This document shows, piece by piece, positions 707-41,383 of a stretch of DNA of 64,000 bases. The translations under genes and the position numbers were made by a program. The notes beneath the pieces are model-generated. The model was not told where the DNA came from. It did no database searches and worked only from the letters and a program-made list of their open reading frames with translations. The first letter of the stretch is position 1; the number at the start of each line of letters is the position of its first letter. Origin of the DNA: a virus; IMG/VR virus record IMGVR_UViG_3300008448_000018, positions 1 through 64,000 of that record. The stretch is one strand, 5' to 3'.

Positions 707-901
707 GGCGTGTCGTGTGGTTAAGATCACATAAAATAATTTCCAGAATTACGGCGTGTCGTCTTGACTTTTTGAGATTTATCTGGTAGTATTCTCTTAT
801 ACAATTAAATAAATAGCAAAAACGATGTGATGTAATTCACATTCAATTTGTCTGATATGTCCGATTTTCAATTTGATAATGTCAGCCAAAACTGCTAGAC
901 T
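707..901 (+). promoter_or_regulatory. early regulatory block 1: GGCGTGTC x2, CRP-like boxes 716-731 and 826-841, sigma-A promoter TTGACT(764)-N17-TAGTAT(787), 9-nt repeats 849-866, TGTCAG(880)-N10-TAGACT(896)
   Basis: Motifs read directly; they recur in other intergenic blocks. Confidence 0.8.
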
Positions 902-942
902 TACTATGTAAGAAAATGAAAGTCTCTTGAAAGGAGAACTCA

Positions 943-1161
943 ATGTCCGCAAATGTCTATTCAATAGAAAACCTACTTGTAGGAAAAAACTACTACTCAC
1001 GCACCTTGCAAGGTGAAATCGTATCTGCAGAAATTCACCCTAAAGGTATTTGGTATGAAGGTTGCGAAACTTATCTTGTAGAGGTTGCACCTAATAGTGG
1101 CTACAATAATTTTGGTCGCAGAACTTACCGAACTGTAGCCGTAAAAACTGAAAATAACTAA
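943..1161 (+). CDS. hypothetical small beta-rich protein
   Basis: GAAAGGAG RBS; 72 aa ORF after the promoter. Confidence 0.75.
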   Translation: MSANVYSIENLLVGKNYYSRTLQGEIVSAEIHPKGIWYEGCETYLVEVAPNSGYNNFGRRTYRTVAVKTENN

Positions 1162-1178
1162 GAAAGGAAAACTGAAAT

Positions 1179-1361
1179 ATGTATAATGTAAAACTAGAAA
1201 CCTTTAATGGTTCAGTAAAAACTATCAGCCTGCCCTCAAAAGGTGCGGTTGCTCAATTCATATCAACATACCCAACACAATTACCCGTTGGCGTATCCGT
1301 AAAAATCGCTTGCGATACTCTTGGAATTACTGGCACACTTCGTGGAAAGGCTACACTATAA
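1179..1361 (+). CDS. hypothetical protein
   Basis: GAAAGGA RBS; 60 aa. Confidence 0.7.
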   Translation: MYNVKLETFNGSVKTISLPSKGAVAQFISTYPTQLPVGVSVKIACDTLGITGTLRGKATL

Positions 1362-1567
1362 TGAAAAAAATCTATCACTCACTACAATTCGTCACCGAAC
1401 TAGACGAAACTCACCCAGTAGCACAACGCCTGCTAACACTTTCAGAAATTGAACAAGTGCAAATGCTTGAAGGTATGCTAAAAGAATTACTTGCACCTAT
1501 GATTCAACCAACACTTGATGAACTCAACGAGGGCAATTCTTATGCAACGCTAAAGGTGGCAAAATAA
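1361..1567 (+). CDS. hypothetical protein
   Basis: TAATG coupling; MKKIYHSLQF... Confidence 0.7.
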   Translation: MKKIYHSLQFVTELDETHPVAQRLLTLSEIEQVQMLEGMLKELLAPMIQPTLDELNEGNSYATLKVAK

Positions 1568-1738
1568 ATGATGACACGCAAAGACTATGTAGCCGTTGCA
1601 GAAATTCTTTCATCTTATAAAGATTTAATAGGTGATGAATTTTTATTTGAAGATTTGGTAGAAGATTTTTCTTCATTCTTTGCAGAGGATAATCCAAATT
1701 TTAAATTTGATAAATTCAGAGAGGCGTGCATGAAATGA
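1568..1738 (+). CDS. small phage protein (MTRKDY...DNPxF...F.EAC type)
   Basis: Hand-translated MMTRKDYVAVAEIL...EDNPNFKFDKFREACMK. Confidence 0.7.
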   Translation: MMTRKDYVAVAEILSSYKDLIGDEFLFEDLVEDFSSFFAEDNPNFKFDKFREACMK

Positions 1739-1887
1739 TTCTAGATACTGGAACACTAATCGGAATAACAATTGCACTTGCTGGATCTCTTTTTGTAATG
1801 GGTATGTTTTGGAAACAAAATATTGCACAACAAAAAGAAATTCGCAGATTGCAAATTGCGTTGAGAAGTGAACGACTAAAAAAATAA
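1735..1887 (+). CDS. small membrane protein with basic tail
   Basis: MILDTGTLIGITIALAGSLFVMGMFW...; ATGA overlap. Confidence 0.65.
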   Translation: MILDTGTLIGITIALAGSLFVMGMFWKQNIAQQKEIRRLQIALRSERLKK

Positions 1888-1892
1888 ATAAA

Positions 1893-1921
1893 AAATCCTG
1901 AGCAAGATTTAAAACTGCTCA
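1893..1921 (+). ncRNA. H-type pseudoknot, family copy 1
   Basis: AAATC-C-TGAGCA-A-GATTT-AAAAC-TGCTCA. Confidence 0.75.
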
Positions 1922-1928
1922 AAAATTT

Positions 1929-2032
1929 CCGGCGTGTCGTCCACAGGTTATCCACAGACCTTTACGTGTGATATTAAACACACCCCGAAATGACCTTATG
2001 AACTGGAAAATGTCAGTCCAGTCTGATAGGCT
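1929..2032 (+). promoter_or_regulatory. regulatory block 2: GGCGTGTC, DnaA boxes 1937-1945 and 1948-1956, CRP-like box 1967-1982, TGTCAG(2011)-N10-TAGGCT(2027)
   Basis: Motifs read directly. Confidence 0.75.
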
Positions 2033-2059
2033 TGATTTATCAAGACGAAAGGAAAACTA

Positions 2060-2254
2060 ATGGGAAACTTATTTGATAAAATAGGAACTTGCTACACTTG
2101 CTATGATGAGGGCGTTATCTTTACTGATATGGATAGCGATGGATTTATAAATGATTTCTGCGCTGATTGTGAAAAAGGGCAGGGATTTGCTAATGAGTAT
2201 GCCGTATGGTATGCTGAAAATGAAATGAACGAATATGCTAAGGAGAACGCATAA
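2060..2254 (+). CDS. small CxxC..CxxC protein
   Basis: GAAAGGA RBS; CYTC, CADC. Confidence 0.75.
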   Translation: MGNLFDKIGTCYTCYDEGVIFTDMDSDGFINDFCADCEKGQGFANEYAVWYAENEMNEYAKENA

Positions 2255-2463
2255 TGGAATATAACTACTCACTTACTACTTCATATGATGGAGAACTTGT
2301 AAATACCCTGCGTGTTAGCGATATGCTAGAGGCAGTAAACGCTTGGACTAAATGTGTAGACTTTGGCGACGCTAAAGAATACGCAACCTATAACTTGTCA
2401 GACCCTACTGGCAAAATGTATACTAAGACCTTCTACCGCAACGGAAATGTGAGTGTAAAATAA
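2254..2463 (+). CDS. hypothetical protein
   Basis: AGGAG RBS, TAATG coupling. Confidence 0.75.
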   Translation: MEYNYSLTTSYDGELVNTLRVSDMLEAVNAWTKCVDFGDAKEYATYNLSDPTGKMYTKTFYRNGNVSVK

Positions 2464-2464
2464 T

Positions 2465-2749
2465 ATGGGTTCAGTAACCGCACTAGGAATTCAAGATACA
2501 GTATTAGACTTGGAGACTCAGATTCTCTATCACTTGAAGGGTAATCACTATCCTCCAGTACCCGCAGAAATGGTACAACCTTGCATTGAGGCTATTGACG
2601 CTTACTATGATGAGGACTATGACCGAATGATTGATATGCCAAAAGTTGGTGACTTTCAGATTTTATATCGTGGCTCAACGCAAGCACCTGCAAGGGCTAT
2701 CGTAGACCAGCACCACTTATCATTCTGGCTACCTGAAGAGGAATACTAA
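2465..2749 (+). CDS. hypothetical phage protein (HLxGNHYPPVP motif)
   Basis: 94 aa ORF in operon context. Confidence 0.75.
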   Translation: MGSVTALGIQDTVLDLETQILYHLKGNHYPPVPAEMVQPCIEAIDAYYDEDYDRMIDMPKVGDFQILYRGSTQAPARAIVDQHHLSFWLPEEEY

Positions 2750-2750
2750 A

Positions 2751-2993
2751 ATGACTGCTACAATAACAAATATGAAATTTGTGTATGCAGACTTACTTAC
2801 ACCTAGCCAGTTAATGGAAGGTGACTTGATCAATATTGATAATGATATTGTGGAAGTTATTTCAGTAGTTGATGACGCTACTGGAGATAACTATACAATT
2901 ACTCATAAGAATGAATATGATGAAGTAGAAGAAACTCTTTGCACCTATGAAGATATGTTTAAGTTGTATGTCTTTATAGATGATGATGAATAA
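2751..2993 (+). CDS. hypothetical acidic protein, SH3/KOW-like
   Basis: LMEGDLINIDNDIVEVISV pattern. Confidence 0.7.
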   Translation: MTATITNMKFVYADLLTPSQLMEGDLINIDNDIVEVISVVDDATGDNYTITHKNEYDEVEETLCTYEDMFKLYVFIDDDE

Positions 2994-3094
2994 AAATTCA
3001 TAACACTGCATAAAAACCCCGGCGTGTCCGTTTTGTCCAGAACCTCCTGATTATGGGGAGTTGATATTTTTCCCAATTTCTGCTAAGATTAAGT

Positions 3095-3235
3095 ATGAAA
3101 AAAACACCAGAGGAATTACGCAGGCTTATGGAATTACGCCGTAGCAATGCTGCCTCATCGGTCCCTAATAAAAAGAAATACAACCGCAAGAAATGTCAGT
3201 CCCTAATGCTAGAATTAAAGAAAGAAAGTGAGTAA
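3095..3235 (+). CDS. small basic leaderless protein (46 aa)
   Basis: TTGATA(3061)-N17-TAAGAT(3084)-N5-ATG; MKKTPEELRRLMELRRSNAASSVPNKKKYNRKK... Confidence 0.6.
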   Translation: MKKTPEELRRLMELRRSNAASSVPNKKKYNRKKCQSLMLELKKESE

Positions 3236-3241
3236 TCCACC

Positions 3242-3964
3242 ATGTCAAAATTACTTAGAAGCAAAGATAGGAAAGTAGCAAATGCCGTCACCCCAAATGG
3301 AAAACAAGCAAGTATCGCAAATACATTCGGATTACCTGCAGGAAAAAACTATTCATGTCCTGGCGCTACGAGTGTCTGCGAGAGTGTTTGCTATGCAGGC
3401 AAATTGGAAAAGGTATTCCCAACAGTAAAGAAAAACTTATTGCATAACTGGGAATTACTACGTAATGCTGATCGTGTTGAGATGTACACACTAATTTCAG
3501 AAATGATTGCAGAGTTTAAAACAGATTGTGTTAGACGCAATGCCCCTATGCTATTTCGCATTCACTGGGATGGCGATTTCTTTAACGATGAGTACGCACA
3601 AGCATGGCGTTCAGTAATCGAAGAGCAACCTGATATTCAATTCTGGGTATACACTAGAGTTAAGTCTGCAGCGCTTATCCTAAAAGACATTCCTAATCTA
3701 TCTTTATATTATTCTACAGATAGCGAGAATAAGAGTGTAGGCGTTGACCTAAAGAGTAATCATGGTATTAGACTTGCATACCTTGCCAAAAATTTTGCTA
3801 TCGGTCAAGGGGATATGAAAGAGTTATTCAATAAGCCTGGTGCTAAGTGCCCTGAGAATAATAAGTCTATTCCACTTATCTCACAGAAAGGCTCGGCTTG
3901 CGTTTCTTGCGGATTGTGTGTATACTCGAAGGCAGACATAGTTTTTTCCGCAACTAAAAAGTGA
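3242..3964 (+). CDS. GP88-like Fe-S/radical-SAM-like phage protein
   Basis: SCPGATSVCESVCYA, FRIHWDGDF, YTR, C-terminal CxxCxxC; preceded by TGTCAG(3194)-N10-TAGAAT. Confidence 0.75.
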   Translation: MSKLLRSKDRKVANAVTPNGKQASIANTFGLPAGKNYSCPGATSVCESVCYAGKLEKVFPTVKKNLLHNWELLRNADRVEMYTLISEMIAEFKTDCVRRNAPMLFRIHWDGDFFNDEYAQAWRSVIEEQPDIQFWVYTRVKSAALILKDIPNLSLYYSTDSENKSVGVDLKSNHGIRLAYLAKNFAIGQGDMKELFNKPGAKCPENNKSIPLISQKGSACVSCGLCVYSKADIVFSATKK

Positions 3965-4035
3965 GATACCAACAATGGATAACAGTATAATCTTATATAT
4001 TCTGCTATGGCTATTTCTAATGTTTCTTACCCAAT

Positions 4036-4148
4036 AGTCCGTAATGTCCGATATGTCCAGATGTGATTTATATCACAATCAAAAATGTATCAAATAGTGA
4101 GATTTTTACCCTTCCGACTTGCATTTTGTCAGTAGGTAGTAGTAAAAT
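4036..4148 (+). promoter_or_regulatory. regulatory block: three 9-nt repeats 4036-4062, perfect CRP-like box 4062-4077, TTGCAT(4119), TGTCAG(4127)-N10-TAAAAT(4143)
   Basis: Motifs read directly. Confidence 0.8.
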
Positions 4149-4178
4149 AATAATATCAACCTAACGAAAGGAAATACA

Positions 4179-4343
4179 ATGTCAGTAGCAACCGCAACTT
4201 ACAAAGTAGGAGATACCTACACAACACAGAAGTCCAAAGTCACAGGAGTAATCAAGGAGATTATTCCACAGGCTAACGGAAATGTCCGTGTTGCGCTAGA
4301 TGTAGAGGGAAAGACCCGATACACAACTTGGACAGCCAAGTAA
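4179..4343 (+). CDS. small SH3-like beta protein (54 aa), paralog A
   Basis: GAAAGGA RBS; MSVATATYKVGDTYTTQKSKVTGVIKEII...RVALDVEGKTRYTTWTAK. Confidence 0.75.
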   Translation: MSVATATYKVGDTYTTQKSKVTGVIKEIIPQANGNVRVALDVEGKTRYTTWTAK

Positions 4344-4352
4344 AATAAAATA

Positions 4353-4422
4353 ACGAAACAGGGGCAGTTTAGGAGAGTATCTAGCCCAATGTCGTAAGTA
4401 AGAACTCTCCCCCCTTCGGGGG
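4353..4422 (+). ncRNA. larger pseudoknot followed by a cUUCGg hairpin
   Basis: GGGC 4362/GCCC 4384; loop GGAGAGT 4372 pairs with ACTCTCC 4404; then CCCC-TTCG-GGGG. Confidence 0.6.
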
Positions 4423-4477
4423 AAATGTCAGACCCACCCCCTACAATAGAAACTAACCACCAAAGAAAAGGAAACCA

Positions 4478-4903
4478 ATGTCAAGAGGAAAAGCAATCTC
4501 AGTAAAAATCGCAACACCAAAGGTAATCAAGGCACTAGAACAGGCACTAAATAAACTAGAACTTGATTGGACTTCACAAGAAGCCAATGAAGCAAAGTAT
4601 GAGAAGGCAAGAGAGAAGTGGCGTAAAGAAGTTCAAGAATACGCTATTGCTAACATCAAGAAGGCAACCAACTTCCGCACTTCATATCGTTCATACAACA
4701 ACACGCTAAACATTGACTACGATATTATCGTAGCAAAAGAAAGCGATATGCCAGTAGAACCAAATCGTGATTTCGTAGTGCTACACACTCACGAATATCA
4801 AAGTCAGAAAGAGGAAATTGCAAATGCAATTCGTATCCTAAAGATGACAGATGAGGAAGTTGTAAATACTTCTACATATAATGCGGTAGCACGCTACCTA
4901 TAA
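4478..4903 (+). CDS. hypothetical protein (141 aa)
   Basis: AAGGA RBS; TGTCAG(4426)-N10-TACAAT promoter. Confidence 0.8.
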   Translation: MSRGKAISVKIATPKVIKALEQALNKLELDWTSQEANEAKYEKAREKWRKEVQEYAIANIKKATNFRTSYRSYNNTLNIDYDIIVAKESDMPVEPNRDFVVLHTHEYQSQKEEIANAIRILKMTDEEVVNTSTYNAVARYL

Positions 4904-4918
4904 TTCCTACTAAGGAAA

Positions 4919-4948
4919 AGTCCTGAGTATGACTACTAAAACTGCTCA
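4919..4948 (+). ncRNA. H-type pseudoknot, family copy 2
   Basis: AGTC-C-TGAGTA-T-GACT-ACTAAAAC-TGCTCA (U.G wobble in stem 2). Confidence 0.75.
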
Positions 4949-4986
4949 CCAACTCTAAACACCACAACAGAAAGGCAAGACCCAAA

Positions 4987-5157
4987 ATGACACTAGGCGG
5001 ATACACTTACCAAATTGGTGATTTATTCACAACAAGCAAAACAGGAATTACAGGTCGTATTAGCAACTTTACACCTATCAATTCTAAACTTACTAGAGTT
5101 TCATTACAGTTAGCAAATGGCGCACACCGATTTGCTATGGTAAAAACATCTAAGTAA
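4987..5157 (+). CDS. small SH3-like beta protein (56 aa), paralog B
   Basis: GAAAGG RBS; MTLGGYTYQIGDLFTTSKTGITGRISNF...RVSLQLANG. Confidence 0.75.
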   Translation: MTLGGYTYQIGDLFTTSKTGITGRISNFTPINSKLTRVSLQLANGAHRFAMVKTSK

Positions 5158-5164
5158 AAAGAAT

Positions 5165-5263
5165 TCGCCAGGCTGATTAGGGCGATAATAGAAATACTAT
5201 AGAGCCACCTTATTGGGCAGGTGCAAGAACCCATACATCCTGAGCATGATGGAAAAAGGCTCA
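5165..5263 (+). ncRNA. three tandem H-type pseudoknots; the third is family copy 3
   Basis: TCGCC/GGCGA + GGCT/AGCC; ACCT/AGGT + TGGG/CCCA; CATC/GATG + TGAGC/GCTCA. Confidence 0.65.
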
Positions 5264-5272
5264 AAAATTTTG

Positions 5273-5357
5273 CCGGGCTCGTGTGATCAACATCACATCT
5301 CATTATATGAGATAGTTACGATTCCCATTTGTACTTGTCAGTCCTCATATGTATACT
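5273..5357 (+). promoter_or_regulatory. regulatory block: CCGG, perfect CRP-like box 5282-5297, TCTCA-N5-TGAGA, TTGTAC, TGTCAG(5336)-N10-TATACT(5352)
   Basis: Motifs read directly. Confidence 0.8.
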
Positions 5358-5386
5358 TATATTAAACCACAAAGAAGGAGACCCCT

Positions 5387-5650
5387 ATGATAGCAACAGC
5401 GATAGCAATCCAAGATGCAACTGCCTCAGCCGTTCACGATAATATGATTATGGATATGGCTGGACATTTATACCACGCAAGAAACGAAATGACAGACGAA
5501 GAGTTTGTTCAGTTCTTATTTAAATACTCAGCCAGTTTGTCAGCCCTAACTGCTACATTGGTTACATCAGTTTGTTTGACAGAAAGTCAGATGAACGATA
5601 TGGTAGATACCATTAAAGAATTCGACCAACTAGAACAAGAAATGGAATAA
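5387..5650 (+). CDS. hypothetical protein
   Basis: AAGGAG RBS; 87 aa. Confidence 0.8.
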   Translation: MIATAIAIQDATASAVHDNMIMDMAGHLYHARNEMTDEEFVQFLFKYSASLSALTATLVTSVCLTESQMNDMVDTIKEFDQLEQEME

Positions 5651-5655
5651 CCCCT

Positions 5656-6135
5656 ATGTCAACTAATATACTTGAAGCGGTAACAGAAGATAAGTTAACC
5701 GTCGCATACAACCCGCACTTACTGGTTACTTATAAGGCAATTCCAGATACATATGCTGCACCTGAAGTGCCTACATTCTTAACAAGCAAGGTTACCGATA
5801 TTGAATGGGACCTACACGTATCACGCAATAATACTAAGAGACTTGATAAGTTAGAGAATCTTATCAATGGACTAGATGAGCAAGTTATTGAATGGACTAA
5901 TCCTAACTATGAAAAGGATGAGGTTCTTGCTGGAATCTGTGAATACTTTGGTATTAATCCTACCAAGGAAATTGAAGTACAAGGAACTGTAACATTTACA
6001 GGAACAGTGCGTGTACCAATTGCAGAAGCAGAAGACTTTGACTTAAGTAATGTTTCAGTCGATGTTGATTTAAATTCATATGACTATGATGCAGACTTTT
6101 GTGTTGACGAAGTATCTCTTGAGGAGCACTACTAA
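5656..6135 (+). CDS. hypothetical acidic protein
   Basis: 159 aa ORF in operon. Confidence 0.8.
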   Translation: MSTNILEAVTEDKLTVAYNPHLLVTYKAIPDTYAAPEVPTFLTSKVTDIEWDLHVSRNNTKRLDKLENLINGLDEQVIEWTNPNYEKDEVLAGICEYFGINPTKEIEVQGTVTFTGTVRVPIAEAEDFDLSNVSVDVDLNSYDYDADFCVDEVSLEEHY

Positions 6136-6159
6136 GTTTCATAGGGGGCTATGAAAAAG

Positions 6160-6190
6160 GGACCTGAGCAGTGTCCATGTAAACGGCTCA
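6160..6190 (+). ncRNA. H-type pseudoknot, family copy 4
   Basis: GGAC-C-TGAGC-AGT-GTCC-ATGTAAACG-GCTCA. Confidence 0.75.
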
Positions 6191-6198
6191 CCAATATT

Positions 6199-6311
6199 CC
6201 CACTTATTAGAGTGGTAGTGTGTTGAGTAAGTGGGTGCTTATCTCGTAAGAATAAGAATACCTGGAGTTCATCAGAAGGATGATCTATAAGCAACAGGGC
6301 ACACTACCACT
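6199..6311 (+). ncRNA. large pseudoknotted RNA (10-bp and 12-14-bp stems, hairpins in loop 3)
   Basis: CCCACTTATT/AGTAAGTGGG; AGTGGTAGTGTG/CACACTACCACT. Confidence 0.7.
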
Positions 6312-6319
6312 TGTAAATT

Positions 6320-6441
6320 CCGGCACGCCCAGCCTGGTTTGTCAAGTTACGATTATGTGAGATTCCCCACATTCCCAAAATGTCCGATTTACCCCTATTT
6401 AACTATCCTGATTTGCATTTGTCGGTGGCTAGGTGTATGAT
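6320..6441 (+). promoter_or_regulatory. regulatory block: CCGG, CRP-like box 6356-6371, TGTCCGATT, TTGCAT(6413), TGTCGG(6420)-N10-TATGAT(6436)
   Basis: Motifs read directly. Confidence 0.8.
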
Positions 6442-6471
6442 TAGATTAACAACAAAAGAAAGAAGGAAATC

Positions 6472-7494
6472 GTGGCTCACGACTTAGAAACACAAAATGG
6501 TAAAACCTCATTCGCCTCATTCAGAGAACCTGCTTGGCACGGATTGGGTACTGTATTTACCGAAGAAAAAACAACCGCAGAAATGCTAGAGGCTGCAAAT
6601 CTTAATGGGTGGAATGTTCGCCTTGAAGATATGCAAACACCCGCACACCTAACAAGCGACAAGGCTTACCAATATGTCTTGCGTACTAATCCTACTGATA
6701 ACACCCAGACTGATATTCTTGGTGTTGTTGGTGAGCGTTATCACGTATTGCAGAATGAAGATTTATTCTCATTCGGTGATAATATCCTAGACGGCGGAGG
6801 TCGTTGGGAAACTGCTGGCTCAATCAAGGGTGGGCGTGTTGTATTCGGTGCATTAGCACTAGAGCGTGAAACAATCCTAGACCCTAGCGGTGTTGCAGAT
6901 AAGGTAAAGACTTATTTACTTATCAACACATCACACGATGGCTCAATCGCTATTCAAGCAAGCATAACACCTGTTCGTGTTGTGTGCGCTAATACTCTTA
7001 ACCTTGCTCTTGGTGGCGTAGGTCGCAAGAAGAACAAGGGTATCAAGCAATCTTTCAAGATTCGCCACACACAAACTGCAAATGGTAAAGTGCAGATTGC
7101 TCGTGAAACTCTTGGTCTTGCTAATGCTTATATGGACGAATTTGATGTTATGGCTAAGGCTATGATTGAAAAAGAAGTTTCTGCTAAGGATTTCAATGAC
7201 ATCATTCTTGCTGCATATGCTAAGCCAGAAAAAGATTCTAAGGGTTCAATGAAGAAGTGGGAAAATAAAGTTGATGTTATCAACGATATTTACACTGGTG
7301 AATTCAATGGAATGATTGCTGGTAATGCGTGGGGTGCGTTCAATGCACTTACTGAGCGTCTTGACTGGTATCGTTCTGCTCGTGGTGGTTCTAACGAATC
7401 TATCCTTGCAAGCGCAAGCGGATTTGACCCTGCTATCAACGCAGAAAAAAATCGTCTGCTAAAAGTTGTGCAAAATGTTATGCAATTAGCATAA
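6472..7494 (+). CDS. DUF932 / TIGR03299-type phage/plasmid protein
   Basis: MAH..REPAWHGLG, YHVLQNEDLF, ETAGSIKGG, NTSHDGS, TPVRVVCANT, AWGAFNALTE. Confidence 0.9.
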   Translation: MAHDLETQNGKTSFASFREPAWHGLGTVFTEEKTTAEMLEAANLNGWNVRLEDMQTPAHLTSDKAYQYVLRTNPTDNTQTDILGVVGERYHVLQNEDLFSFGDNILDGGGRWETAGSIKGGRVVFGALALERETILDPSGVADKVKTYLLINTSHDGSIAIQASITPVRVVCANTLNLALGGVGRKKNKGIKQSFKIRHTQTANGKVQIARETLGLANAYMDEFDVMAKAMIEKEVSAKDFNDIILAAYAKPEKDSKGSMKKWENKVDVINDIYTGEFNGMIAGNAWGAFNALTERLDWYRSARGGSNESILASASGFDPAINAEKNRLLKVVQNVMQLA

Positions 7495-7508
7495 GCAAAC
7501 GAAAGAAA

Positions 7509-7536
7509 ATTCCTGAGCAAGAATCAAAACTGCTCA
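7509..7536 (+). ncRNA. H-type pseudoknot, family copy 5
   Basis: ATTC-C-TGAGCA-A-GAAT-CAAAAC-TGCTCA. Confidence 0.75.
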
Positions 7537-7539
7537 CAC

Positions 7540-7612
7540 GCTCCGTTAGATTAGCGGTTAAATCATCACACTGTCACTGTGAAGATCACGAGTTCAAATC
7601 TCGTACGGGGCG
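7540..7612 (+). tRNA. tRNA-Asp(GUC)
   Basis: GCTCCGT/ACGGGGC acceptor, TCACA-CTGTCAC-TGTGA anticodon arm, ACGAG-TTCAAAT-CTCGT T arm. Confidence 0.9.
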
Positions 7613-7730
7613 CAATGCAAAAAGCGGTGCCGGATTTTTGTTTATTTTATTAGCATTGCATTACGGAGACTTGATTTATTTCCCATTTTCGGGTAAAATT
7701 AATATATACCTACTAACCAAAGGAAACACC

Positions 7731-8156
7731 ATGAGTGAAAGATCAAAAGGATATATTGGTCAAATAGTTGACGGTAAGAAGTTAGCAACAATAGCAAATG
7801 ATATCTATCGTCTACAGTATAGCAATGACTTTAGTGAATGTACAGTAGATAATTTGTTATTTGTTACCCTTGAAGAAAAGAATGTATTTGGCGACAATAA
7901 GTATGCCTTGGTTTGCTCAGAAGGAGTAGGCTGGGAGCAGGACACTTATGGATGTCTAGAAGTACCAACTAACATTGGTCAAATGGGTCTATGGAATGGT
8001 AGAGTGTTTATCTCTGTAGATACTGTTAAAGAATGTCTAACAGAACAAACAGAGGATATCGCAGACTACATCCGTGTCTTTGGTGATAGATTAGATAGAA
8101 ACTGTTCCCTATGGCAATCTAAGATGTCAGTGCCTAGCGATATGATATTATCATGA
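7731..8156 (+). CDS. hypothetical protein
   Basis: AAAGGA RBS before MSERSKG. Confidence 0.75.
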   Translation: MSERSKGYIGQIVDGKKLATIANDIYRLQYSNDFSECTVDNLLFVTLEEKNVFGDNKYALVCSEGVGWEQDTYGCLEVPTNIGQMGLWNGRVFISVDTVKECLTEQTEDIADYIRVFGDRLDRNCSLWQSKMSVPSDMILS

Positions 8157-8314
8157 CCACAACATACAAACCATACACAATATCAGAACTCGTAAATGAG
8201 ATTTATGAGGACAACCTATCGCACTTTGAATTTGAGGAAAACATGGGGGGAGACCCATGTGATTGCCACTTACATATTACCATGAACACCATTGTCAAGT
8301 ATTGGGGAGAATAA
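8153..8314 (+). CDS. small leaderless protein (53 aa)
   Basis: TGTCAG(8125)-N10-TATGAT(8141)-N6-ATG; MTTTYKPYTISEL...CDCHLH...KYWGE. Confidence 0.7.
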   Translation: MTTTYKPYTISELVNEIYEDNLSHFEFEENMGGDPCDCHLHITMNTIVKYWGE

Positions 8315-8472
8315 TGTTAGGCTATACTAAGGAAGATTTAGATAATATGACTGATGCCGTGGCTTCTGCCATAACTACCGTGAATCCTGACGATGACCCT
8401 TGGTTACACGGGAGCCTATCGAAGACTCAAGAATTCCTTGAAGGTTTGTGGGCAGAGGGGTACTTTGACTAA
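8314..8472 (+). CDS. small hypothetical protein
   Basis: TAATG coupling; MLGYTKEDL...GLWAEGYFD. Confidence 0.7.
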   Translation: MLGYTKEDLDNMTDAVASAITTVNPDDDPWLHGSLSKTQEFLEGLWAEGYFD

Positions 8473-8747
8473 TGTGGGGTAAGTATACTTTTACATGTGA
8501 TCCCGAAGAGTGTGACGCTCTTGTTGAGTTTACTGCCAGGGATGGATTTGGCTTTCCCCTGGGAGTTGTCGAGATGATGTGCCCATGTGGTAGGAAGTTA
8601 AACTATATTAGTTACGAAGAGTTAGGGGAGTCTGAGACTTTCCTGTGCTCCCGTTGCAATGAGGTATTAGATAAAGAGTCAGAGCACTGTGATCATTATC
8701 TCACCGTGTGTAATTATTGTTGCGACTGTGGATGTAGCCAAACGTGA
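8472..8747 (+). CDS. Cys-rich zinc-binding protein
   Basis: Multiple Cys pairs. Confidence 0.7.
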   Translation: MWGKYTFTCDPEECDALVEFTARDGFGFPLGVVEMMCPCGRKLNYISYEELGESETFLCSRCNEVLDKESEHCDHYLTVCNYCCDCGCSQT

Positions 8748-8808
8748 TGAAGGTCACACCCCAAAACCCTATTACGACCTTGCAATTATAATCCCCAAAC
8801 CCTATAAT
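8743..8808 (+). promoter_or_regulatory. CRP-like box 8743-8758 plus sigma-A promoter TTGCAA(8780)-N17-TATAAT(8803)
   Basis: Motifs read directly. Confidence 0.75.
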
Positions 8809-8840
8809 TGTTATTACGACCATAGAAAGGAAATCCCAAA

Positions 8841-9026
8841 ATGCCAACATATGATGTAAAAGTAATCGTTGAATACAATTACGAAGTAGAAGCAGACAAC
8901 GACCAAGAGGCAGAAGAACAAGGCTGGCACTACGAAGACTACGGATACACCGCTGAGGTTTATTCTATTGAGATAGATGAGCAACCTGAACCTGAAGAAG
9001 AGGATGAAGATGAATCAGTTGAATAG
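8841..9026 (+). CDS. very acidic small protein
   Basis: GAAAGGA RBS; YEVEADNDQEAEEQ. Confidence 0.75.
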   Translation: MPTYDVKVIVEYNYEVEADNDQEAEEQGWHYEDYGYTAEVYSIEIDEQPEPEEEDEDESVE

Positions 9027-9177
9027 TTTCATTGAGTATATGAAGATTCATGAGATAAGTCTTTTACAAGACCTTGAGAAGATTGACTATGTTAATGAAC
9101 ATCATTTCTATAGGACTAAAGAGGCTGAGATTTATAATACCCGCCACCTTTTGTCAGTGGCAGAGGGTATGATTTAA
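9010..9177 (+). CDS. hypothetical protein
   Basis: GAGGA upstream; MNQLNSFIEYMK... Confidence 0.6.
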   Translation: MNQLNSFIEYMKIHEISLLQDLEKIDYVNEHHFYRTKEAEIYNTRHLLSVAEGMI

Positions 9178-9179
9178 TC

Positions 9180-9458
9180 ATGAAAGAAAACGCAGACCCA
9201 ATCCAACCGCACCTACAACGTATGGTAGACCATGGGGTATCAGGTATTGATATCCTACATGGCGAACTAAAGAATCTAATGCTGCTGGCAGAGCGTGAAC
9301 TAGAGCATGCACAAGCAGTAGAGGACGCAACTGAAGAAGCCATGGACTCTATGGAACGTACACGAGCAGAAGGCATGCTAGACGCTTATGTACACCTATA
9401 TGGCTTGACATATGATATCTCATTTGCTATCGCAGATATGGAGGCTAAGAATGCCTAA
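9180..9458 (+). CDS. leaderless helical protein
   Basis: TGTCAG(9152)-N10-TATGAT(9168)-N6-ATG. Confidence 0.75.
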   Translation: MKENADPIQPHLQRMVDHGVSGIDILHGELKNLMLLAERELEHAQAVEDATEEAMDSMERTRAEGMLDAYVHLYGLTYDISFAIADMEAKNA

Positions 9459-11539: not shown

Positions 11540-12380
11540 AGGTTGCGCTGCCGCTACATGCGGCGGTGCGCCCCGGCAAATCGGACATATGGTACAAACC
11601 TCCCAAACCTTATTTACGAAAAACTTATTACGATCCACCAAATAATTTTCCAGATTCATGGGCTTTTGCCAAACCTTAAAAACTTATTACGAAGGTTTGA
11701 AATATTTTCCAGATTCATAGCCAAACCTTATATCATACAAACCTTGTATTGTCAAACCCTGTATCCAGGTATAAAGGTTTTGTATTGTATCTTATACTAC
11801 TGACATTATGAATGACCTTGTTTATCCCCCGCCCTAGCGATGACTGACAGGATTAGCAGACAGCCCCTGCAGCGGGGGATCAAAAGATACACAACAAACC
11901 ACCCTATATAAAACATTACGATAACAAACCTTTTTTCCTGGTTTTAGATTATTTACCAAACCTTTTATAACTTTTTGTTATTGTTTTCCACAATTTTGGT
12001 GCAAATTTATAGGGGGTTTTTAGGCTATAAAGGTTTGACAAACCACCATATTTGTGGTATAAGCAGGGTATCGGGCATATGAGGTTTGGAGGTTTGACAA
12101 TATGAAGGTTTTGTGGTAGGAGGTTTGACGGCTCCAGACATTACGAAGCCCCTCTATAAAAGCGCTCCATTCTCCACTTATCTCCACTTTCCTCCACTCT
12201 AACCCAATCTAAAAAATATCAGTAAGATTTATCTGTGGATAAACCTGTGGATAACTATAGTATCAAACCAGAAAAACCTCTCAAACCAGACATATTGACC
12301 TGTGGATAACTCCAGGGTATCAAACCATCAAACCCTATCTCTGGCTTATATAAGGCGTATCTCTGGCATATAGGCTATAC
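11540..12380. repeat. non-coding repeat island (CAAACC/GGTTTG repeats, WTTACGA repeats, DnaA boxes, GTGGAG-N4 array); candidate origin or TF-binding array
   Basis: No credible ORF; about 12 CAAACC and several GGTTTG copies; TGTGGATAA at 12234, 12246, 12301. Confidence 0.7.
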
Positions 12381-12387
12381 TAGATAC

Positions 12388-12522
12388 ATGCTCAATGTCC
12401 TATGCTTCGACTGTGGGGGAATGTATGAGGTTTTATATGACACTCCCAAACCAACACAACAATGCCCTAAGTGTATTACTACTAGGGGTAATTCTGCTTC
12501 TTTGCCAATCCCGCCGAAATAG
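12388..12522 (+). CDS. tiny leaderless zinc-ribbon protein
   Basis: TATACT(12376)-N6-ATG; CFDC...CPKC. Confidence 0.6.
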   Translation: MLNVLCFDCGGMYEVLYDTPKPTQQCPKCITTRGNSASLPIPPK

Positions 12523-21978: not shown

Positions 21979-22467
21979 TCAAACTGAGCGGGTAGCATGA
22001 GTTACCCAGTAGTATAAACATTTATCACAACAAGGCTTATTATTCTCATTCTTAGTATCCTGATAGAACTCAGCATAATATTCTGGATCCTTACGATATA
22101 GGTTTGCTCTGTGGGTAATGTTAATACGCTTTAGGTGTGGACCATTTGAGTTAGCCCAGAAAGGCTTCTCAGTACCCCATATATCGCCACACAAGGCTTC
22201 TAGAGCGTCTATATTGGCTTCGTTCTTATCTGTCCTTATGCCACGGCTCTTAGCCTCTGTAATCATGGTTTTAGCATATGTTCTTAGTGAGTACTCTGCA
22301 TTTTTCCACATAAGAACTGCTGGATGATTACGCCAAGCCCCTGAAGGTGATTGACCAGACAATACCTTTAGAATTTGATAAGACTCAAGTATCTGTTTAT
22401 TTAAACGTTTATTATCAAGAGATTCTGCACACTCGTCATAGTTTTGATATGGTAAAAATGTTTGCAT
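21979..22467 (-). CDS. MSMEG_6728-family / pyrimidine-dimer DNA glycosylase-like protein
   Basis: MQTFLPY..LDNKRLNKQ..E..Q, W.NHPAVLMW, THRANLYRKDP. Confidence 0.85.
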   Translation of the reverse strand: MQTFLPYQNYDECAESLDNKRLNKQILESYQILKVLSGQSPSGAWRNHPAVLMWKNAEYSLRTYAKTMITEAKSRGIRTDKNEANIDALEALCGDIWGTEKPFWANSNGPHLKRINITHRANLYRKDPEYYAEFYQDTKNENNKPCCDKCLYYWVTHATRSV

Positions 22468-22697
22468 TATTTTATTGCCTCTCTAGTGACCAAGACCACT
22501 GCCCCATTCATTTCTAATGCCTTTTTAACTTGAACAACATATTGTAACGCTTGGATCTTTTCATCATGAACCATAGTTACAAAATGCTTTTCATCTAATT
22601 TTATCGTAAGAAAGGCATCGTTGTCAATAATCTGTACTTTAAATCCTTTTGGGGGAATAATAGAATGAAAGGCTCTACGCATAGAATCTGTATACAT
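22467..22697 (-). CDS. hypothetical protein
   Basis: Translationally coupled ORF. Confidence 0.75.
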   Translation of the reverse strand: MYTDSMRRAFHSIIPPKGFKVQIIDNDAFLTIKLDEKHFVTMVHDEKIQALQYVVQVKKALEMNGAVVLVTREAIK

Positions 22698-22981
22698 TAT
22701 TTATCCATTGTTAAAGATTGCCAAGTTTCTGCCCAATCTTTTTTAGTCCTATGATTGTTGAATTCTCTAGATATTTCTCCACCTTCAAGATATATACCAC
22801 CCCAAACTCCCCATTCTTTTCCAGAAACACCATTAGCAAAACATGTCTTTCTAACTGGACATGTATTGCATATAGAGTCTACCGCTAATCTAAGCGTTGG
22901 CTCTTCTTCATATTTATCAAAAAATATATCAGTATCAAGACCTAAACACTCAGCATCGTCTTTCCAGATGTGCTGTTTCAT
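22697..22981 (-). CDS. whiB: WhiB-family Fe-S transcription factor
   Basis: W..DAEC...FF...CNTCPVRKTC...WGVWGG. Confidence 0.92.
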   Translation of the reverse strand: MKQHIWKDDAECLGLDTDIFFDKYEEEPTLRLAVDSICNTCPVRKTCFANGVSGKEWGVWGGIYLEGGEISREFNNHRTKKDWAETWQSLTMDK

Positions 22982-27711: not shown

Positions 27712-28140
27712 TTACTTTTTTGCAACTTTGATGTCAATTGTTTTAGGCTTCTTGTCTTCTGGAACAATACGATCTACATTAATGTGTAGCATACCATCCT
27801 TCATTTCAGCCCCAGTTACTTCCATGTATTCTCCAAGAGCAAATGATCGTACAAATTTACGAGCAGCAATTCCCTTGTGAACTACTTCAGCATCTGTTAC
27901 TTCAACAATCTCACCCTTGATAATTAATGTTCCATTATCTACAGATACATTAATATCTTCCTTTGAGAATCCAGCAATGGCTAGTGAGACTCTATATGTA
28001 TCTTCATCTAGTTTTAGGATGTCATAAGGTGGATATGTTTGTGAGTTTGTTTTATATGCGCTGTTTAGGCGATTCAACTCTCTGTTGAAGCCAATAAAAA
28101 AAGGATCATTGAATAGATCCATAGCGAGTTTTGTTACCAT
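27712..28140 (-). CDS. small heat shock protein Hsp20
   Basis: YPPYDI, LAIAGF, HKGIAARKF.RSF, DGML.I. Confidence 0.92.
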   Translation of the reverse strand: MVTKLAMDLFNDPFFIGFNRELNRLNSAYKTNSQTYPPYDILKLDEDTYRVSLAIAGFSKEDINVSVDNGTLIIKGEIVEVTDAEVVHKGIAARKFVRSFALGEYMEVTGAEMKDGMLHINVDRIVPEDKKPKTIDIKVAKK

Positions 28141-29466: not shown

Positions 29467-29991
29467 TTAAATGCTTACTACGTCAACTGGACCCATGCAA
29501 GATGGACTAAACTTAATTGCTGCTGATACAGCAGAGACTACACGATTTCTTGCATTTTTTTGTTTATCAGTTGCATATAGAACGCCATAAGCATATTCAG
29601 CACCTGAACCCATTGCAAGATATGGAAGTGTATATTTAGATAAAGACATATCCGCAGAACTGTGTTCATATATTTCACCACGAACTGCAATAATCAAACC
29701 AAGATCTCCATCTTTTGATGTATCTACCCAAAACTCATTATAAAATTCTTTTAATTCTTTAACAAATCTTGTTTGCATAAACTTATCTGTATCTTTAATG
29801 TTTGGTGCAGTTGGCTTAAAGTTATAACGAATTCTTTCTCCATCCATTGCCCCCGCATATCCAATTAAATATGGACCAATTTTCCAAACTTTTGGTGCAT
29901 CTAGAGCAAGAATAGTTCCATCATCTGACGCACCACGGTCACCAGCCATGTAAATTTTATCGTCATGTTTTACTACAGCAATGCAAGTCAT
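29467..29991 (-). CDS. Ntn-hydrolase (HslV/proteasome-beta-like) peptidase
   Basis: N-terminal MTC, AGD, KV, LAMGSG. Confidence 0.8.
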   Translation of the reverse strand: MTCIAVVKHDDKIYMAGDRGASDDGTILALDAPKVWKIGPYLIGYAGAMDGERIRYNFKPTAPNIKDTDKFMQTRFVKELKEFYNEFWVDTSKDGDLGLIIAVRGEIYEHSSADMSLSKYTLPYLAMGSGAEYAYGVLYATDKQKNARNRVVSAVSAAIKFSPSCMGPVDVVSI

Positions 29992-40199: not shown

Positions 40200-40374
40200 T
40201 TTTAAAATCACTTTTCTTTTTCTTTGGAGGAATGAGATTTACTTTTGATATATGTTTTTCTGGACACATCCATGTTGCATCCCCACTTTCAGCCCAATAT
40301 CTTAAAGATGTAACTTCAACTCCACACTTCTTACATGGAAATTTTCCAGGATATACAGTAAAATCTTTAGCCAT
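40192..40374 (-). CDS. zinc-ribbon protein
   Basis: CKKC..C..KH. Confidence 0.7.
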   Translation of the reverse strand: MAKDFTVYPGKFPCKKCGVEVTSLRYWAESGDATWMCPEKHISKVNLIPPKKKKSDFKNE

Positions 40375-41383
40375 TATTCAACTTATCTTTAAGACTTTGC
40401 TGTAAGTCAAGGTCTTCCTTAACACGAGCAATAAAACCATCTCTACCTTGAACTTTAGTTCCATCATCTAGTTGGTACCATGCACCAGTTCTATTTACAA
40501 GACCTGCTGCTTCTGCTGTATCAACTAAATCTCCTATGGAGTCGATTCCTACTTCATCTCCTCTAAAATAAAAATCATACTCACCTGATTGAAATCCTGG
40601 AGAAGTTTTTGAGAACTGCAGTTCCCAACGAATCTTTCTACCAATCTTTTCTTCAATTAACTTATCACCAATCTTTATTTTGCCTTTAATTGCTTGGTTA
40701 TCCGATTCGGACGAAAACAATTTAATAACAGTAGAAGAATAGAACTTAGTAGCCTGACCACCAGTAGGCTGCTGGCTAGTATACATAGCATTAATATTGT
40801 TACGGCTTTGACTAATAAGAACAAAAAGCGTTGGCTTAACTTTATTATTTGCATAGTTAATCATCTTCCAAGCATTGGAAAAGTCACGAGACTCTGCACC
40901 AATTTGTTTTGTGTTTTCAAGTTGCTTGAGTTCATCGGAATCCTTTTCAAAATAGATTGCTGGAAGTAATGATGTAATTGAGTCAACAACCACAATATCA
41001 ACACCAGCATTGATTAGGTTTGTACCTACGTCAACCATTTCATTAATTGTACGAGCCTGAGAATAAATAAGTTTAGATGAATCTACTCCAAGACGTTCTG
41101 CCCATGCTTTATCGTATGACATTTCTGCATCAATCCATGCACAGATCTTTCCTTCTTTCTGTGCTAGACCAATCATCTGAAGGCATAGAGAAGACTTTGC
41201 AGAGGATTTAGAACCCCAAACAAGTACTTGACGACCATATGGTAATCCACCTGCTAATGCACGGTTTAAACCAAAACTGGGAGTTGCTGCATATTCTGTT
41301 GGAGGTACTGAGTCTCCAACCATAATAGTCTTACGCAACTTAGGGTTAAGTTGTGCCAATACTTCTTCCATTGTTACTGACAT
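40367..41383 (-). CDS. recA: RecA/UvsX-like recombinase
   Basis: GGLPYGR, IDAE, VVVDS, PTGG.A.KFYSS, GAWY. Confidence 0.92.
   Translation of the reverse strand: MSVTMEEVLAQLNPKLRKTIMVGDSVPPTEYAATPSFGLNRALAGGLPYGRQVLVWGSKSSAKSSLCLQMIGLAQKEGKICAWIDAEMSYDKAWAERLGVDSSKLIYSQARTINEMVDVGTNLINAGVDIVVVDSITSLLPAIYFEKDSDELKQLENTKQIGAESRDFSNAWKMINYANNKVKPTLFVLISQSRNNINAMYTSQQPTGGQATKFYSSTVIKLFSSESDNQAIKGKIKIGDKLIEEKIGRKIRWELQFSKTSPGFQSGEYDFYFRGDEVGIDSIGDLVDTAEAAGLVNRTGAWYQLDDGTKVQGRDGFIARVKEDLDLQQSLKDKLNNG

Follow-up and report, generated by a model that had tools for sequence, protein, structure and literature searches.

Candidate PafBC-type promoters ahead of small orphan genes in an uncultured lake actinophage

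The phage genome and the repeated motif

This study examined a promoter-like motif, TGTCRG-N10-TAnnnT, that recurs in the small-gene arm of an uncultured virus (IMG/VR record IMGVR_UViG_3300008448_000018). The record comprises 101,516 bp with a terminal overlap and a completeness rated 100%, and the window, meaning the whole stretch of DNA analyzed here, is its first 64 kb. An earlier note on the window had read ten copies of the motif as DNA-damage promoters of the actinobacterial RecA-NDp type, which would place the early genes of the phage under the host activator PafBC. We found that the motif is real and beyond chance at 12 strong sites. Judging from the sequence, these sites are fairly probably promoters that depend on host PafBC and the housekeeping sigma factor SigA, some of them being dual-mode promoters with a -35 element.

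The phage has a G+C content of 38% and carries a siphovirus gene set that includes a tape-measure protein of 2,295 amino acids, a large terminase, a portal, a capsid, and a prohead protease. A DnaE-type polymerase, DnaB, RecA, a class II ribonucleotide reductase, five tRNAs, and a GP88-family gene were also identified. In family searches, a WhiB-family protein was the sole recognizable transcription factor of the genome; WhiB is a hallmark of actinobacterial phages. The DnaE protein exhibited 56% identity with that of Streptomyces phages of the Stanwilliamsviridae. Many of the phage genes begin 6-8 nt past a -10 element, a leaderless style that is common in actinobacteria. Because the genome combines WhiB, a DnaE closest to that of Streptomyces phages, and leaderless starts, we assign it on gene content to the actinophages despite its low G+C content. 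A near-identity DNA search against cultured phages yielded no match.

No integrase, resolvase, or tyrosine or serine recombinase was found in the phage genome, and neither a lysogeny module nor a repressor candidate was detected in it. Since an integrase and a resolvase are lacking, the phage looks virulent. A reading in terms of prophage induction was discarded, the searches having detected neither a tyrosine nor a serine recombinase. Relatives of the phage in IMG/VR number in the hundreds; mis-binned contigs of such relatives sit in metagenome-assembled genomes (MAGs), and one MAG label points to Lake Mendota.

Occurrence, spacing, and strength of the motif

All ten copies on the + strand were recovered at the positions given earlier (the nine predicted promoters and site 5538 of Table 1). 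With one further copy on the - strand, the window contained 11 matches, compared with 1.16 +/- 1.02 expected from 100 dinucleotide shuffles of the window, none of which attained 11. Enrichment over shuffled sequence, the comparison by which the motif was to be judged according to the earlier note, was present. In the whole record, 12 forward and 3 reverse matches were observed, against 1 and 0 for a reversed-pattern control. The spacing was as exact as had been claimed, with 15 sites at N10 and 0-2 at each other spacing from 6 to 15.

A position weight matrix (PWM) was built from 28 family sites, taken from the phage genome and from the motif-rich arms of three relatives. Scanning the genome with this matrix revealed 12 strong sites with scores of 21-36, and everything else scored at most 15, a level that shuffled sequences also attain; training on the family sites inflates their own scores, but the gap between at least 21 and at most 15 is still wide. 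Nine of the strong sites lie in the window, where they are the predicted promoters of Table 1, and three lie just past the record junction, at 100076 (-), 100382 (+), and 101261 (+). Of the roughly ten promoters proposed earlier, nine were thus retained, whereas the tenth, at 5538, scores at chance level. The near-match at 2396 fared no better, with a chance-level score, CAAAAT in place of the -10, and a position inside a gene. Sites 5538, 2396, 11805 (-), and 87484 (-) were rejected as promoters, their matrix scores being no better than those of shuffled sequence.

Every strong site is co-oriented with genes and ends 6-54 nt ahead of a start codon, in line with the earlier claim that most copies lie upstream of gene starts, and most are followed by a strong ribosome-binding site. 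The leaderless pair was likewise confirmed; at sites 8125 and 9152, TATGAT is followed after 6 nt by the ATG. A generic sigma-70 consensus scan of the small-gene arm revealed no enrichment (41 vs 31 +/- 6).

A chance or compositional origin of the matches describes sites 5538, 11805 (-), 87484 (-), and 2396 well, as these behave like chance hits. Extended to the whole set, it has a negligible probability; it has to face a count that no shuffle attained, an exclusive spacing, the co-orientation of the strong sites with genes and their placement ahead of start codons, and conservation of the motif in hundreds of relatives.

Promoter anatomy and promoter classes

The 28 family sites carried information beyond the box and the -10. 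The W-S-S-C directly 3' of TGTCAG (TGGC, ACCC, or TCCC) is informative, as is a TTG at the -35 position. The G of a TG extended -10 is present in 19 of the 28 sites, and an A stands exactly 7 nt past the -10 in 23. This A, at whose position both leaderless ATGs also lie, is the predicted transcription start. At position 5 of the box, the phage motif strongly prefers A. The four copies that had been described as carrying a TTGnnn -35 do so, each at 17-18 nt from the -10 (Table 1), and the other 8 of the 12 strong sites are without it.

The -10 hexamers of this box class are suboptimal, with TATAAT in only 1 of the 28 family sites; weak -10 elements are typical of activator-dependent promoters. 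In addition, 24 perfect extended -10 sites of the form TGnTATAAT were identified in the genome. None of these is paired with the box, and 20 of them lie on the long leftward arm, which carries the replication, virion, and lysis genes. The genome thus appears to be divided between two promoter classes, the box type on the small-gene arm and TGnTATAAT elsewhere. The weak -10 elements and the absence of the box from all 24 TGnTATAAT sites were counted in favor of activator dependence.

Ordinary -35/-10 promoters were also found on the small-gene arm, at 764, 3061, and 7671. The latter two have a conserved spacer in common, TTGAT(A/T)-T-TTTCCCA-, and make up a third promoter type of this arm. In some relatives (L260, L296), the TTTCCCA-spacer type stands in for the TGTCAG promoter of the GP88 gene. 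The earlier claim that the motif promoters drive the early program was therefore kept in part: box promoters do head transcription units, but because the arm has ordinary promoters and relatives swap types at the same gene, the program is not driven by the box class alone.

The box could instead be an operator for a host or phage repressor, situated between -35 and -10 and keeping the arm silent until a signal arrives. Where a -35 exists, the box does sit in the spacer, the classic operator position, and the further conserved boxes (AATGTCCGATTT, TGTGA-N6-TCACA) attest to heavy regulation of the arm. Nevertheless, the box lacks symmetry and spans just 6 bp, and most sites combine a missing -35 with a weak -10 and would need activation rather than repression. 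As the phage genome also yielded no repressor candidate, integrase, or lysogeny module, we regard an operator as very improbable.

Conservation in relatives

In each of three relatives (~81% DnaE identity), the motif recurs as a cluster of 5-6 copies in the same orientation. Conservation was further assessed in two footprints in which the motif was not presupposed. The DUF932 gene was taken from 80 related contigs, giving 63 distinct upstream regions, and the GP88 gene gave 67. In both sets, TGTC and the TA and T of the -10 were at least 97% conserved, whereas the 10-nt spacer was conserved at ~55%. Six of the DUF932 regions do not contain the exact pattern and read TGTCAC, TGTCTG, or TGTCGC at N10; the GP88 regions contain the exact motif in 49 of 67 cases and AGTCAG or CGTCAG in three. 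All of these variants retain GTC and N10, and the evolutionary constraint, as read from the footprints, falls on GTC and the spacing. Box promoters and plain SigA promoters replace one another in the course of evolution, which argues that both are read by the host polymerase.

Relative IMGVR_UViG_3300002835_000068 (103 kb, 93% complete, 81% DnaE identity) contained no clustered copies. Either the small-gene arm is absent from this record or another promoter type is used.

The PafBC system and candidate host lineages

The published PafBC consensus is tGTCgg(N10)tA(N3)T, in which a 5' element spanning -23 to -28 is joined to a 3' element that represents the SigA -10; PafB R46 and R50 read its GTC, which is strictly maintained throughout the actinobacteria, and the promoters have no -35 (PMC8635444). 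PafBC requires single-stranded DNA (ssDNA) and binds only RNA polymerase-SigA that is already on such a promoter (PMC11804915). The PafBC-dependent promoters are the RecA-NDp or recA P1-type promoters, and the mode of activation is termed sigma adaptation (PMC8635444, PMC11804915, PMC6789036). The phage motif has the geometry of this consensus, N10 included, which upholds its earlier identification as the RecA-NDp motif. The GTC that is near-invariant in the phage-family footprints is the triplet read by R46 and R50 (PMC8635444).

The MAGs holding mis-binned contigs of relatives are labeled Methylococcus, Beijerinckiaceae, Bifidobacterium, Lishizhenia, and Aquiluna (freshwater). In the class containing the Aquiluna-labeled MAG, WYL proteins were found in 201 of 201 sampled genomes, including streamlined ones of 1.3-1.5 Mb; five of the genomes counted here (G016, G031, G036, G039, and G045) are flagged as unpublished, and no specific claim is based on them. 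One genome of 1.35 Mb (G207) has two adjacent WYL genes, encoding PafB (E 7e-34 to 9FND/7P5X) and PafC (E 2e-26), and its recognition helix RMFERDK is identical to the mycobacterial one. A tandem PafB/PafC pair is also present in G006.

In five of five small freshwater actinobacterial genomes (1.3-1.4 Mb), TGTC(A/G)G-N10-TAnnnT was found upstream of recA, followed by a LexA box. The recA box of four of them reads cTTGTCAGTGGC, of the form TGTCAGTGGC-N6-TAnnnT, and has the same letters as phage site 9152, whose box (TGTCAGTGGC) is identical to the cellular recA box. Each small cellular genome contains 13-14 matches to the pattern, near the control count, and the phage arm holds about as many. 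The cellular sites examined lie ahead of recA, a LysM gene with neighboring LexA boxes, carD, and genes for a trypsin-like peptidase and a DNA methylase; two of the sites other than that at recA display the 6-nt leaderless geometry. The LysM gene presumably occupies the position of mycobacterial chiZ/Rv2719c. A search with WhiB returned only phage relatives as top matches and gave no host information. These lineages are plausible hosts that appear to have true PafB/PafC and the same TGTCAG variant upstream of recA.

Search for a phage-encoded reader

Six-frame family searches of the phage genome detected no WYL domain and no sigma-70 region 2, and a phage-encoded WYL or sigma factor was rejected as the reader of the box. 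Among 114 open reading frames (ORFs; 41 in the small-gene arm and 73 in the long arm), no helix-turn-helix (HTH) or other transcription-factor family was found besides WhiB, and a T4-type activator and co-activator (MotA/AsiA) was recognizable in neither search. The Planktophila phage isolates E7 and F5 fall into another family (39 kb) and have their own sigma factor (PMC10202952).

A phage factor might nevertheless read the box, either an unrecognized small DNA-binding protein or a MotA/AsiA-like activator, which would make these promoters a phage-controlled middle class. Their geometry resembles that of T4 middle promoters, with a MotA box at -30 plus a -10 (a comparison made in PMC8635444), some 40 small ORFs of the arm belong to no known family, and the phage WhiB could act on sigma region 4. 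We consider such a factor quite unlikely, given that no WYL, sigma, or HTH domain emerged from the six frames or the 114 ORFs, that WhiB proteins are not known to read a sequence of this kind, and that the box is identical to the cellular one in the likely hosts.

Host PafBC as the predicted reader

We propose that the twelve strong sites would be promoters read by the host housekeeping RNA polymerase (SigA), in which the -26 box replaces or adjoins the -35 and is combined with a deliberately suboptimal -10. Host PafBC loaded with ssDNA would dock between sigma region 4 and the GTC of the box, by sigma adaptation, and would turn on or boost about a dozen short units of small genes without assigned function, including the GP88-family gene, the DUF932 gene, and the endonuclease VII operon. 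Box promoters with a TTGnnn -35 would have basal PafBC-independent activity and hence two modes, and the replication, virion, and lysis genes would use the other class, that is, the perfect extended -10 promoters TGnTATAAT. The ssDNA may come from injected ends, from phage replication or recombination, or from host DNA breakdown. The PafBC-type reading of the earlier note was thereby maintained in part, in view of the motif geometry, the actinophage assignment, the presence of pafBC in plausible hosts, and the lack of a recognizable phage reader; it was narrowed in that the box promoters are not the sole promoter class of the arm.

The proposed "early" timing of the arm is based on its small orphan genes and separate promoter class. 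Because PafBC needs ssDNA, the box promoters might just as well form a delayed-early or replication-coupled wave that follows the firing of the few canonical promoters. That a virulent phage makes a block of genes depend on the host ssDNA alarm PafBC, and uses ssDNA made by infection as a timing signal, is in our judgment an evenly balanced proposition. Candidates for such ssDNA would be injected ends, replication or recombination intermediates, and damage caused by host defenses.

Several observations weigh against a role of PafBC. TTGACA is matched at 5 or 6 of its 6 positions, 17-18 nt from the -10, in 8 of the 28 family sites, compared with 2% of all TAnnnT in the genome. One DUF932 upstream region has lost the box and has a better -35 instead (TTGACT-N18-TATGAT), and in other GP88 regions the gene is fused to the upstream operon or preceded by a canonical TTGACA-N17-TATTAT promoter; the box thus appears dispensable, an ordinary -35 taking its place ahead of the same gene in relatives. 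The box promoters are likely to have basal activity in the absence of PafBC, because actinobacterial SigA can fire from a -10 or extended -10 alone and the TG is present in 19 of the 28 sites. The sampled small genomes have a G+C content of 48%, compared with 38% in the phage, and a scan of the genome collection with the phage RecA returned only mis-binned phage contigs and gave no host call. Small orphan proteins of the phage could conceal an unrecognized DNA-binding factor. Finally, the motif signature is missing from ten cultured actinophages, among them the closest cultured relatives, and these provide no cultured model: three Stanwilliamsviridae genomes contained 0, 0, and 3 scattered matches, and Mycobacterium phages Shaqnato and WaldoWhy, Gordonia phages Pupper and Buggaboo, Microbacterium phage Krampus, and Streptomyces phages Emaanora and PHTowN contained 0-3 each.

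In Pupper (NC_054723.1), 3 forward matches against 0 for the reversed control were observed, and those at 104162 and 105047 lie within 2 kb upstream of DnaE. These matches are too few to call and are the only hint among the ten cultured phages.

Part of this evidence would also fit plain SigA promoters, in which TGTCAG would act as a spacer or upstream element peculiar to the phage and adjust promoter strength independently of PafBC, possibly through DNA shape or contacts with sigma region 3/4, its likeness to the PafBC box being convergent or incidental. Actinobacterial SigA promoters often require only a -10 or an extended -10, so that the TG in 19 of 28 sites or the good -35 in 8 of 28 could suffice, and in relatives an ordinary TTGACA-N17 promoter can stand in for the box ahead of the same gene. 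Strength tuning alone leaves unexplained why the constraint is exactly GTC at exactly N10, matching the readout of a known activator, why the same TGTCAGTGGC box stands at recA of the likely host lineages, and why the box is absent from the 24 strong TGnTATAAT promoters. We consider it unlikely, and host PafBC acting with SigA remains the reading that we favor.

Accessory elements and other features of the genome

The small-gene arm contains further repeated elements (Table 1). The AATGTCCGATTT box occurs ahead of several TGTCAG promoters, at a distance of 23-83 nt, and its conservation across the 63 related DUF932 upstream regions equals that of the promoter boxes; TGTCCG forms part of it, but there is no -10 at N10. 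The TGAGC...GCTCA hairpins appear to mark the borders of transcription units. AATGTCCGATTT, GGCGTGTC, TGTGA-N6-TCACA, and the hairpins were found on the small-gene arm only and nowhere else in the genome.

Table 1. Positions of predicted promoters, accessory elements, and selected genes (window coordinates unless marked "genome").
Feature	Position	Strand	Remarks
TGTCAG-N10-TAGACT, predicted promoter	880-901	+	PWM 27.1; heads operon 943-1887
TTGATA, -35-like hexamer of site 880	873-878	+	17 nt from -10
TGTCAG-N10-TAGGCT, predicted promoter	2011-2032	+	PWM 34.8; TG extended -10, no -35; heads genes 2060-2993
TGTCAG-N10-TAGAAT, predicted promoter	3194-3215	+	PWM 31.5; no -35; heads GP88-family gene 3242-3964
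TGTCAG-N10-TAAAAT, predicted promoter	4127-4148	+	PWM 21.3; heads gene 4179-4343
TTGCAT, -35 of site 4127	4119-4124	+	18 nt from -10
TGTCAG-N10-TACAAT, predicted promoter	4426-4447	+	PWM 24.3; directly past GC hairpin; heads gene 4478-4903
TGTCAG-N10-TATACT, predicted promoter	5336-5357	+	PWM 27.2; heads genes 5387-6135
TTGTAC, -35 of site 5336	5329-5334	+	17 nt from -10
TGTCGG-N10-TATGAT, predicted promoter	6420-6441	+	PWM 26.3; heads DUF932 gene 6472-7494
TTGCAT, -35 of site 6420	6413-6418	+	17 nt from -10
TGTCAGTGCC-N6-TATGAT, predicted promoter	8125-8146	+	PWM 25.2; leaderless ATG at 8153
TGTCAGTGGC-N6-TATGAT, predicted promoter	9152-9173	+	PWM 26.6; leaderless ATG at 9180
Exact pattern match, doubtful function	5538-5559	+	inside ORF 5387-5650; PWM 13.4, shuffles reach 13-16
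Near-match TGTCAG-N10-CAAAAT	2396-2417	+	inside gene; PWM 14.9
Opposite-strand match, probably chance	11784-11805	-	below PWM threshold
SigA-type promoter TTGACT-N17-TAGTAT	764-792	+	ordinary -35/-10, small-gene arm
Similar ordinary -35/-10 promoters	3061-3089, 7671-7699	+	small-gene arm
AATGTCCGATTT accessory box	6380-6390; also 857, 4044, genome 100349, genome 101228	+	
TGTGA-N6-TCACA palindrome	826-841, 4062-4077, 5282-5297		confined to control arm
TGAGC...GCTCA hairpin	1899-1921	+	past operon end
TGAGC...GCTCA hairpins	5241-5263, 6165-6190, 7514-7536		
WhiB-family gene	22697-22981	-	47 bits vs Pfam cut-off 23.6
Pyrimidine-dimer DNA glycosylase gene	21982-22467	-	Pyr_excise, E 2e-19
Hsp20 gene	27715-28140	-	
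RecA gene	40367-41383	-	
Endonuclease VII gene region	genome 98744-99373	-	E 2e-21

The divergent TGTCAG promoter at 100076 (-) heads a leftward operon in which the endonuclease VII gene lies amid small orphan ORFs. The phage also encodes a pyrimidine-dimer DNA glycosylase, Hsp20, and RecA, none of which stands behind a TGTCAG promoter. PafBC is tied to the Pup-proteasome locus; a 174-amino-acid ORF at 29470-29991 (-) resembled the Pfam Proteasome subunit family weakly and over residues 119-160 only (24.1 bits vs a cut-off of 22.4), a match that may be spurious.

Within the small-gene arm, a tRNA-Asp gene (7540-7613) lies directly past the hairpin that ends the DUF932 unit and ahead of a canonical promoter. 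The 41 small ORFs of the arm, on the + strand, include a fragment resembling the PnuC nicotinamide mononucleotide transporter (Pfam E 9e-8, PHROG 1880), possibly a host-derived auxiliary gene. A non-coding stretch of ~600 bp in the arm (11784-12400) is a possible origin region; the TGTCAG match of chance level on the - strand falls within it.

Comparison with known systems

The phage sites share with the PafBC promoters of Mycobacterium and other Actinobacteria the 22-nt tGTCgg-N10-tAnnnT, the near-invariant GTC, and the SigA-type -10, and the TGTCAGTGGC variant is found upstream of recA in the likely host lineages. They differ in density, with ~12 copies in ~12 kb, as many matches as in a whole 1.3-Mb cellular genome. 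Furthermore, the genes that follow the phage motif are orphans of the phage and not repair genes, and A is strongly preferred at position 5. Most copies are without a -35, as in the published promoters, although a real -35 is added in a third of the phage-family sites.

In T4 middle promoters (MotA box at -30 plus -10), a box ~10-12 nt upstream of the -10 similarly replaces the -35, and in sigma appropriation an adaptor bridges sigma region 4 to the DNA, as we propose for the lake phage. In contrast to T4, whose adaptors AsiA and MotA are both phage-encoded and remodel sigma, no such adaptor was found in the lake phage, and its box equals the site of a host activator. Temperate phages coupled to the SOS response (lambda, 186 Tum, CTXphi), with repressors or antirepressors controlled by LexA/RecA, likewise wire expression to the DNA-damage sensing of the host. 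However, those switches remove a prophage repressor, whereas the lake phage, which lacks integrase and lysogeny genes, would use the activator PafBC on many promoters. The closest cultured relatives by DnaE, the Stanwilliamsviridae (Streptomyces cluster BE, e.g., BillNye), are also large siphoviruses with a DnaE-type polymerase, WhiB, tRNAs, and a small-gene arm; they differ in being without the motif.

No account of PafBC-type promoters in a phage emerged from full-text literature searches, and to our knowledge such promoters have been described solely for the regulon with which actinobacterial cells respond to DNA damage. A 2025 study cited in PMC12848934 reportedly links pafBC to mycobacteriophage resistance. 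The present analysis added motif-independent footprints, -35 statistics, the swapping of promoter classes, a check of PafB/PafC orthology, and a survey of cultured phages.

Significance

The dozen PafBC-type sites ahead of orphan genes in an abundant, virulent, uncultured lake phage suggest that a host alarm activator can serve as a gene-timing device of the phage. If this is true, the ssDNA sensor would gain a function during infection, and the system would be a host-encoded counterpart of T4 MotA/AsiA. The natural promoter variants with and without a -35 would then be available for the study of sigma adaptation. The pafBC status of a host would also be predicted to alter phage susceptibility; the phage would depend on pafBC as a host factor, and resistance might arise by way of the same genes.

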